Source of the DNA: a virus | Taxonomy: Duplodnaviria; Heunggongvirae; Uroviricota; Caudoviricetes | IMG/VR virus record: IMGVR_UViG_2547132279_000012 | Location: 1 to 41,632 of that record | Length of the DNA stretch: 41,632 bases | Strand: one strand, 5' to 3' | Shown here: piece by piece, positions 9,725 to 10,215 of the stretch | Numbering within the stretch: the first letter of the stretch is position 1 | Layout of the letters: each line of letters starts with the position of its first letter | Notes under the pieces: generated by a model | Told to the model about the DNA's origin: nothing | What the model saw: the letters and a program-made list of their open reading frames with translations, nothing else | The model's database searches: none | Made by a program: the position numbers and the translations under genes

Positions 9725-10023
9725 TCATGAGTCTTTTGAATGAAGTTCAGAAATACATTGAAGCCCATCCGGGGTGTACTTCCGGAGACATTGCGGATGC
9801 TTTTGCAGGTTACTCACGGCAGCGCGTTCTGCAGTCAGCAAGCAAGTTACGTCAGAGTGGTCGTGTGGCTCACCGTTGCGAAGGGGATACACGCAGACAT
9901 TTCCCGCGCCTGACTGAGAGAGCGCAGGAGGCGGAACCGCAACCAGTTCGTGAAACCAGACCTGTGCGCAATTTCTATGTCGGCACTAACGATCCCCGGG
10001 TGATTTTGTGCCTGACCCGCTAG
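9721..10023 (+). CDS. Winged-helix DNA-binding protein (100 aa), replication-module accessory
   Basis: ORF translationally coupled to the O-like gene; HTH-like segment GCTSGDIADAFAGYSRQRVLQSASKL. Confidence 0.5.
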   Translation: MIMSLLNEVQKYIEAHPGCTSGDIADAFAGYSRQRVLQSASKLRQSGRVAHRCEGDTRRHFPRLTERAQEAEPQPVRETRPVRNFYVGTNDPRVILCLTR

Positions 10024-10215
10024 GCGGAAGAACTGGAGTCCAGGGGCTTATACCATCGTGCTGCAACGGTGTGGATGGCGGCATTCCGTGAAAGCCACTC
10101 CCAGCCAGAACGAAACAATTTTCTGGCGCGTCGTGAGCAGTGTTTACGGAAAAGCAGCAAGCGCGCTGTATCGGGTGATGAGTGGTATCTGTCAGGGAAT
10201 TACGTGGGGGCGTAA
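10024..10215 (+). CDS. PerC/ANR-like transcriptional activator ORF lacking a canonical start (possible pseudogene or read-through)
   Basis: Translation AEELESRGLYHRAATVWMAAFRE... matches the PerC-family N-terminal pattern; the only upstream in-frame codon is the TAG stop of the preceding gene. Confidence 0.35.
   Translation, partial: AEELESRGLYHRAATVWMAAFRESHSQPERNNFLARREQCLRKSSKRAVSGDEWYLSGNYVGA

Follow-up and report, generated by a model that had tools for sequence, protein, structure and literature searches.

A yfdN-type prophage regulator gene very probably split by an amber mutation inside its PerC domain

Two adjacent open reading frames of a Caudoviricetes prophage are very probably one yfdN-type regulator gene that was split by a single C-to-T change at position 10021, by which a glutamine codon, CAG, became the amber codon TAG. 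All positions refer to the window, i.e., the whole stretch of 41,632 nucleotides that was analyzed here (IMG/VR record IMGVR_UViG_2547132279_000012). Judged by its sequence, the copy in the window is a disrupted member, a pseudogene allele, of the yfdN-type PerC family and not an intact one, as it does not form the one uninterrupted ORF of a yfdN-type regulator. The amber allele itself is a real, recurrent and ordinary nonsense allele of an already known gene. The initial annotation of this DNA had described the PerC-like segment as an ORF separate from an upstream wHTH gene and without a usable start codon, and had offered a pseudogene, a noncanonical start or amber read-through into a fusion protein as explanations. 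The features of the locus are the following:

8783–9724, plus strand: O-like replication gene with HTH_36, the upstream neighbor; its TGA stop (9722–9724) overlaps GTG 9721
9721–10215, plus strand: yfdN-type 'PerC family transcriptional regulator' gene, amber-interrupted (end-to-end alignment with SfIV gp42 and SfV orf40)
9721–10023, plus strand: translated remnant of 98 or 100 aa, with the winged-helix-like domain, the linker and the first 9 residues of the PerC-domain helix (ORF list and AlphaFold2 model)
10020–10024, plus strand: CTAGG, a mutated Dcm site, ancestrally CCAGG, with the inner, methylated C changed (direct sequence reading)
10021–10023, plus strand: amber codon TAG, from CAG (Gln99 in the 162-aa and Gln101 in the 164-aa numbering; alignments with SfIV, SfV, mEp460 and E. 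coli 120899)
10024–10215, plus strand: untranslated PerC-domain remnant of 63 codons plus TAA (Pfam PF06069, E = 6.3e-9)
10215–10541, plus strand: LexA-DNA-binding-domain (LexA-DBD)-like gene, the downstream neighbor, whose start codon overlaps the stop of the yfdN-type gene as TAATG (SfIV annotation)

Results

In the window sequence, GTG 9721 or ATG 9727 opens an ORF that is closed by the TAG at 10021–10023, and the frame then runs on as AEELESRGLYHRAATVWMAAF... through 63 codons to the TAA at 10213–10215. The first ATG, GTG or TTG past the amber codon is GTG 10069, the 16th codon, and the first ATG lies at 10075; CTG 10033 and ACG 10066 are the only near-cognate codons between the TAG and GTG 10069. 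It was thus borne out that a PerC-like frame continues past the TAG and has no ATG or GTG for 15 codons. The accompanying statement that the PerC-like part starts immediately after the TAG does not hold for the domain, as the Pfam match opens one residue before the Gln codon. The ancestral length of the gene is 164 aa from GTG 9721, or 162 aa from ATG 9727. The prophage in the window is of the SfII/SfIV/SfV type and adjoins tRNA-Thr(CGU), downstream of a proA-like ORF. In the early-right operons of SfV and lambdoid phages and prophages, the position of the gene is kept, directly after the O-like replication gene and before LexA-DBD-like or Dam genes; in the window, the gene at 10215–10541 matched the lexA N-terminal model TIGR00498 with E = 9e-19.

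Several other regions of the window are worth recording. Two minus-strand ORFs of 175 and 340 aa without a Pfam match (13181–14738) lie directly after the antiterminator Q gene (12756–13121), which is the classic moron or cargo position of lambdoid phages. A serine recombinase gene (Resolvase and HTH_7, 37009–37599) adjoins convergent tail-fibre and tail-fibre-assembly ORFs (34822–35911, plus strand, and 35883–37018, minus strand). The whole region (34822–37599) probably represents an invertible segment for host range, like those of Mu Gin or P1 Cin. Past the tail genes (37660–41632), a GIY-YIG ORF (37660–38484, minus strand) and a Mrr_cat-like ORF (38907–39818) are followed by a 218-aa integrase fragment (39971–40627) and by an ORF with weak nuclease-like and zinc-finger matches that runs off the window end. 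This last stretch may be what is left of a second island at thrW, or it may be cargo for defence.

The two halves of the split gene were found as one continuous annotated ORF with CAG at the position of the stop in SfIV gp42 (164 aa), SfV orf40 (162 aa) and mEp460 gp44. The continuous ORF with CAG is also present in E. coli 120899, which, like mEp460, reads CAGGCG here. The window gene differs from the SfIV copy in 9 of 489 coding bases and from the SfV copy in 18 of 489, and nucleotide alignment traced the split between the halves to a single difference, the C to T at 10021. PGAP applies the name 'yfdN: PerC family transcriptional regulator' to about 2,600 homologous places in complete E. coli genomes. 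When 5.8 billion proteins were searched, those of 162–164 aa with PF06069 predominated, in clusters of up to 4,216 members, and homologs at 65–75% identity in Salmonella, Hafnia and Citrobacter are full length and continuous as well. When 20 diverse homologs were aligned, the column of the amber codon held Gln or Lys in every one of them. Likewise, the N half matched positions 15–103 and the C half positions 105–166 of phrog_1324 (172 positions), so that the two matches are contiguous. A PerC ORF separate from the upstream wHTH gene, as initially annotated, is thus not upheld, and the comparison with intact homologs that had been proposed for finding the ancestral start of such a gene revealed none; the homologs have Gln or Lys where the window has TAG. 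There is no missing start codon to explain, since the wHTH half and the PerC half are two domains of one gene.

At the level of domains, the window segment 10024–10212 matched PF06069 with 36.4 bits (E = 6.3e-9), above the Pfam gathering cut-off of 22.6 bits, and the intact SfIV protein with 39.4 bits; the window match covers profile positions 5–59 of 90. The label 'ANR-like', which had been given to the segment as well, was not established, with 21.5 bits for NCBIfam ANR_neg_reg against a cut-off of 32. The 98 residues before the stop matched no Pfam family. An AlphaFold2 model of the intact twin protein described below was built from the 20-sequence alignment and is given in the 164-aa numbering. 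In this model, residues 5–62 form the N domain, a three-helix bundle with a beta hairpin (pLDDT about 85–90), residues 65–82 are a disordered linker, and the C-terminal domain consists of the helices 92–107, 111–124 and 128–151. The amber codon corresponds to residue 101, within the helix 92–107, the first of the C-terminal domain. In the intact homolog, the Pfam PerC match begins one residue ahead of the Gln codon (residue 98 of 162, profile position 5). As the match starts upstream of the stop and the helix 92–107 spans codon 101, the stop lies inside the PerC domain and does not mark a gene boundary.

For the N domain, sequence matches to MarR-type regulators were weak (E 2e-5 to 1e-4). With the whole model, Foldseek returned no match at E ≤ 0.001; local matches over about 60 residues were obtained to the winged helices of MarR, ArsR and BlaI (rmsd 1.8–3 Å, E 0.06–0.2). 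Since these local winged-helix matches are all that Foldseek gave, the term 'wHTH' is kept for a resemblance at the level of the fold, and the winged-helix assignment of the N domain is moderately supported.

An exact intact twin of the window protein exists in E. coli isolates. This protein (P0137, 164 aa, 7 contigs) has Gln at the stop codon and is otherwise identical, including an unusual His in LYHRAA. With CAG turned into TAG in a yfdN-type gene that has such a twin, the pseudogene option of the initial annotation was right in substance. Because the twin is a living allele, the stop is the only change, and a recent one. The undamaged look of the downstream half would hence reflect recency and not a kept function. 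The His (10055; Arg elsewhere) had been considered as decay following the nonsense mutation, a reading ruled out by the intact P0137, in which Gln and His occur together. Decay was also considered for the Cys and Pro substitutions of another amber-bearing locus (L005), and was ruled out by its own intact twin, P0178.

The truncated product is present in GenBank as 'hypothetical protein' in two versions, WNT82693.1 (98 aa) and EMX57582.1 (100 aa; E. coli Jurua 20/10). A further entry, EMX57583.1, is a 46-aa ORF called from ATG 10075 in one GenBank record; it is an annotation by-product of the split gene. The amber allele of the window haplotype was found on at least 24–25 contigs, versus the 7 contigs of the intact twin. 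Two assemblies, GCA_000355255.2 (E. coli Jurua 20/10) and GCA_004523295.1, are 99.97–99.98% identical to the window over 6.3 kb, amber allele included. In contrast, 5,426 complete RefSeq E. coli genomes, with 2,634 homologous places among them, contained neither a TAG-bearing 32-mer nor the exact 76-mer; the CAGGCT 32-mer, our positive control, occurred there at 1,312 places. The amber allele is hence rare, and a mutational hotspot, if real, must be weak or countered by repair or selection.

A cluster of 100-aa proteins (P0118) had appeared to hold further amber alleles, but these proved to be contig-end truncations, with the three loci L006–L008 stopping at ...CTGACCCGC. The draft contigs concerned come from different samples and end one base before the C/T site (L006:3300, L007:3300 and L008:3299, equivalent to window 10019–10020). 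Ends at this point are what would be expected of a de Bruijn-graph branch in a sample that contains both versions of the base, be it in two prophages or in a mixed population.

Around the stop, intact alleles read ...CGC CAG GCN... and thus contain CCAGG, whereas the window has CTAGG at 10020–10024, so that the C-to-T change is at the second C of an ancestral CCWGG. There are 14 single-transition routes to a stop codon in this gene, and this one alone lies at a Dcm site. The dcm and vsr genes lie outside the window, and methylation of the site at 10020–10024 by Dcm is assumed on the grounds of what is generally known of E. coli. Most likely, the 5-methylcytosine at the inner C of CCAGG would have been deaminated to thymine, and the resulting T:G mismatch would have escaped Vsr very-short-patch repair. 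Amber hotspots of E. coli are classically explained in this way. Ribosomes would then halt at the new TAG in the first helix of the PerC domain. The same CAG-to-TAG event has recurred on several alleles of the yfdN-type gene. Vsr very-short-patch repair is known to correct the T:G mismatch in CTWGG (PMC2715241). Over the whole window, there are 17 CTAG where base composition predicts about 162, and 25 CTWGG instead of about 85, while CCWGG is at expectation (89 against 80). This deficit of CTAG and CTWGG is common in E. coli and presumably reflects very-short-patch repair, to which it is usually ascribed.

TAG at this codon was found on nine distinct nucleotide haplotypes that differ pairwise in 3–26 of 489 nt, and in both contexts, TAGGCG and TAGGCT; the stop has thus recurred. 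The TAG copies lie behind different replication modules and ahead of either a LexA-DBD-like or a Dam gene. Exact intact twins are known for three of the alleles, those of the window, of L005 and of a further locus, L009. In a prospective test, two common intact haplotypes were chosen and the products of five possible transition-nonsense mutations were looked up in each. For both haplotypes (2 of 2), the Gln99-stop product turned up, and it was verified in both as a genuine internal TAG stop, compared with 1 of 8 for the other truncations (hypergeometric p ~0.07, from small numbers). These sequence comparisons support a site-specific excess of nonsense recurrence, i.e., a hotspot. In view of the small numbers, and as L005 looks like a recombinant, recombination and selection may contribute. 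A second and rarer nonsense allele, Trp116 to stop, was seen on three short-read contigs (L027:1001–1348; the codon corresponds to window 10072–10074).

Discussion

Our analysis points to one gene with a new stop codon, and other ways to read the interrupted frame have to be weighed against this. A functional recoding, in which amber read-through at a useful rate would yield both a short winged-helix protein and a full-length fusion, is extremely unlikely. It would agree with the kept frame and the undamaged downstream part, with the recurrence of the allele on many haplotypes, and with the fact that a supE (glnV) suppressor would insert the original Gln. However, a programmed read-through site should have a conserved stop, whereas Gln or Lys stands here in 20 of 20 homologs, and in complete E. 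coli genomes the control 32-mer with CAGGCT by itself was seen at 1,312 places against 0 for TAG. Neither a stimulatory RNA structure nor a cognate suppressor tRNA accompanies the stop: tRNA-Thr(CGU) at 1369–1444 is the only tRNA and no suppressor tRNA is encoded in the window, RNA folding downstream of the stop is nothing unusual (z = +0.56), and there is no Rfam match at the amber site. The undamaged downstream part is explained by recency, as the exact intact twins show. The read-through fusion of the initial annotation thus finds no backing. Neither does its noncanonical start, as the first helix of the domain begins upstream of the stop and no promoter-like site for the PerC segment was found. 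By reinitiation after the amber codon, this segment could also be expressed alone, from CTG 10033, GTG 10069 or ATG 10075, which we regard as highly improbable. Stand-alone PerC-only phage families do exist (phrog_10396, 69 positions; phrog_2608, 83 positions), and the GenBank call of EMX57583.1 uses ATG 10075. A stand-alone PerC or Pch gene, however, has its own start and ribosome-binding site before the whole domain, and in the window there is no ATG, GTG or TTG from 10024 to 10068. CTG is a very poor initiator in E. coli, the sequence holds no convincing Shine–Dalgarno motif before 10069 or 10075, and ATG 10075 sits 52 nt beyond the stop. The product of 46–48 aa would moreover be devoid of the invariant AEELES...LYRRAAT segment and of the first helix of the domain. 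Finally, the TAG could be a sequencing or assembly artifact in a gene that is in fact intact, for example a methylation-induced long-read error at the Dcm site. Methylated motifs, such as the one at the amber site, can provoke nanopore errors (PMC11610603), the allele is absent from complete RefSeq E. coli genomes, and several draft contigs stop exactly before the changed base. Against this, the identical allele occurs in the independent assemblies GCA_000355255.2 and GCA_004523295.1 and in about 22 more contigs, the window has 89 intact CCWGG against 25 CTWGG sites, which argues against a general conversion of Dcm sites, and current models are about 99% accurate within CCWGG (PMC11610603). 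We hence consider an error, which the initial annotation had named as a possible refutation, to have hardly any probability.

A different matter is why the stop recurs. It is rather unlikely, though the most serious of the alternatives to mutation at a hotspot, that recurrence reflects selection or recombination, in the sense that prophages gain from losing the PerC domain, or at least do not suffer, and that one or a few TAG events have spread among mosaic prophages by homologous recombination. In favor of this, P0123 (253 index blocks), a variant of 109 aa that lost the PerC domain by deletion but is still coupled to the next gene, is very widespread, frameshifted alleles of the yfdN-type gene exist as well (P0094, P0095), L005 resembles a recombinant that combines the N half of the window with the TAG, and the window haplotype is known from more contigs with the amber codon (at least 24) than with the intact gene of the twin (7). 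On the other hand, the TAG is found in GCG and GCT contexts alike and on at least four different N-terminal protein haplotypes, L009 carries polymorphisms within 25–34 nt on either side of the TAG, and the TAG sits at precisely the one stop route of the gene that involves a Dcm site. Selection or recombination is compatible with the hotspot explanation and does not exclude it. If the hotspot holds, the locus would provide a clean natural example of a Dcm-site amber hotspot that recurs in prophage populations. A Vsr-stimulated conversion of CTAGG to CCAGG has been mentioned previously (PMC2715241). One may hence speculate that the CCAGG at Gln99 works as a mutational toggle, in which Dcm deamination turns the PerC domain off and Vsr conversion or supE-type suppression turns it back on, although we hold this to be very unlikely. 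Were it true, lysogen populations would carry a low-frequency, reversible mix of the winged-helix-only protein and the full-length regulator.

Under the nonsense mutation as we propose it, the product is likely to be a winged-helix-only protein of 98–100 aa with the linker attached, and the C-terminal remnant would be without function. The PerC segment would be silent, save for traces of natural read-through or for insertion of Gln in a supE host; in the latter case, Gln at the amber codon would restore the wild-type protein exactly. The stop of the yfdN-type gene normally overlaps the ATG of the next gene (TAATG), whereas the amber codon lies 192 nt upstream of the LexA-DBD-like gene, so that translational coupling to this gene would be broken. 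A polar effect on the LexA-DBD-like gene at 10215–10541 is therefore possible.

The widespread 109-aa variant (P0123; phrog_23071) gives essentially the same product as the window ORF, namely the winged helix and the linker through ...CLTRQAE. Its origin is an internal deletion of about 160 nt, by which the PerC domain was removed while the stop/start overlap with the LexA-DBD-like gene was kept, as in L013–L015 (e.g., L013:2501–2830, which corresponds to window 9727–10215). It thus differs from the window allele, which keeps the PerC DNA and terminates 192 nt before the next gene. That this variant is so common suggests that the winged-helix half works on its own, and its spread hints at a function proper to the short form. 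Since amber mutations, frameshifts and, in very many cases, deletions have removed the PerC domain of this regulator, it is evidently dispensable. These losses speak against taking every 'PerC family' prophage gene for a contributor to virulence regulation. The main consequence is for annotation: WNT82693.1, EMX57582.1 and EMX57583.1 represent the two fragments of one yfdN-type gene with a nonsense mutation, and a single pseudogene should be annotated in their place.

The proposed origin of the stop has a well-known counterpart in lacI, where amber hotspots are at the second C of CCAGG (PMC12606429). As in the lacI hotspots A6, A15 and A34 (Coulondre et al. 1978), a C-to-T change of the second C in CCAGG made TAG out of CAG, and of the many possible nonsense sites a single one is hit repeatedly. 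The two cases differ in that ours comes from natural prophage populations and not from a laboratory mutant collection, and in that the dependence on dcm is here deduced from the motif.

Among proteins, the closest relatives are YfdN of the E. coli K-12 prophage CPS-53 together with SfIV gp42, SfV orf40 and mEp460 gp44, which represent the same gene; the SfIV, SfV and mEp460 copies are 9–18 of 489 coding bases away from the window. They share with it the slot between the O-like replication gene and a LexA-DBD-like (or Dam) gene as well as the two-domain layout. The window copy is set apart from this group by TAG in place of CAG at codon 99/101, with only the first 98–100 residues translated. 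YfdN has been cited as the K-12 homolog of PerC, and as a precautionary measure its gene was removed from a strain with a ler-lacZ reporter (PMC5931665). In the literature that we found, no activation of ler by YfdN is documented and no function has been published for it. PerC of EPEC, encoded on the EAF plasmid, and the Pch proteins of EHEC prophages have the family PF06069 in common with the C-terminal segment of the window gene. PerC and Pch are short stand-alone proteins with start codons of their own, whereas the yfdN type carries its PerC domain fused behind a winged-helix domain.
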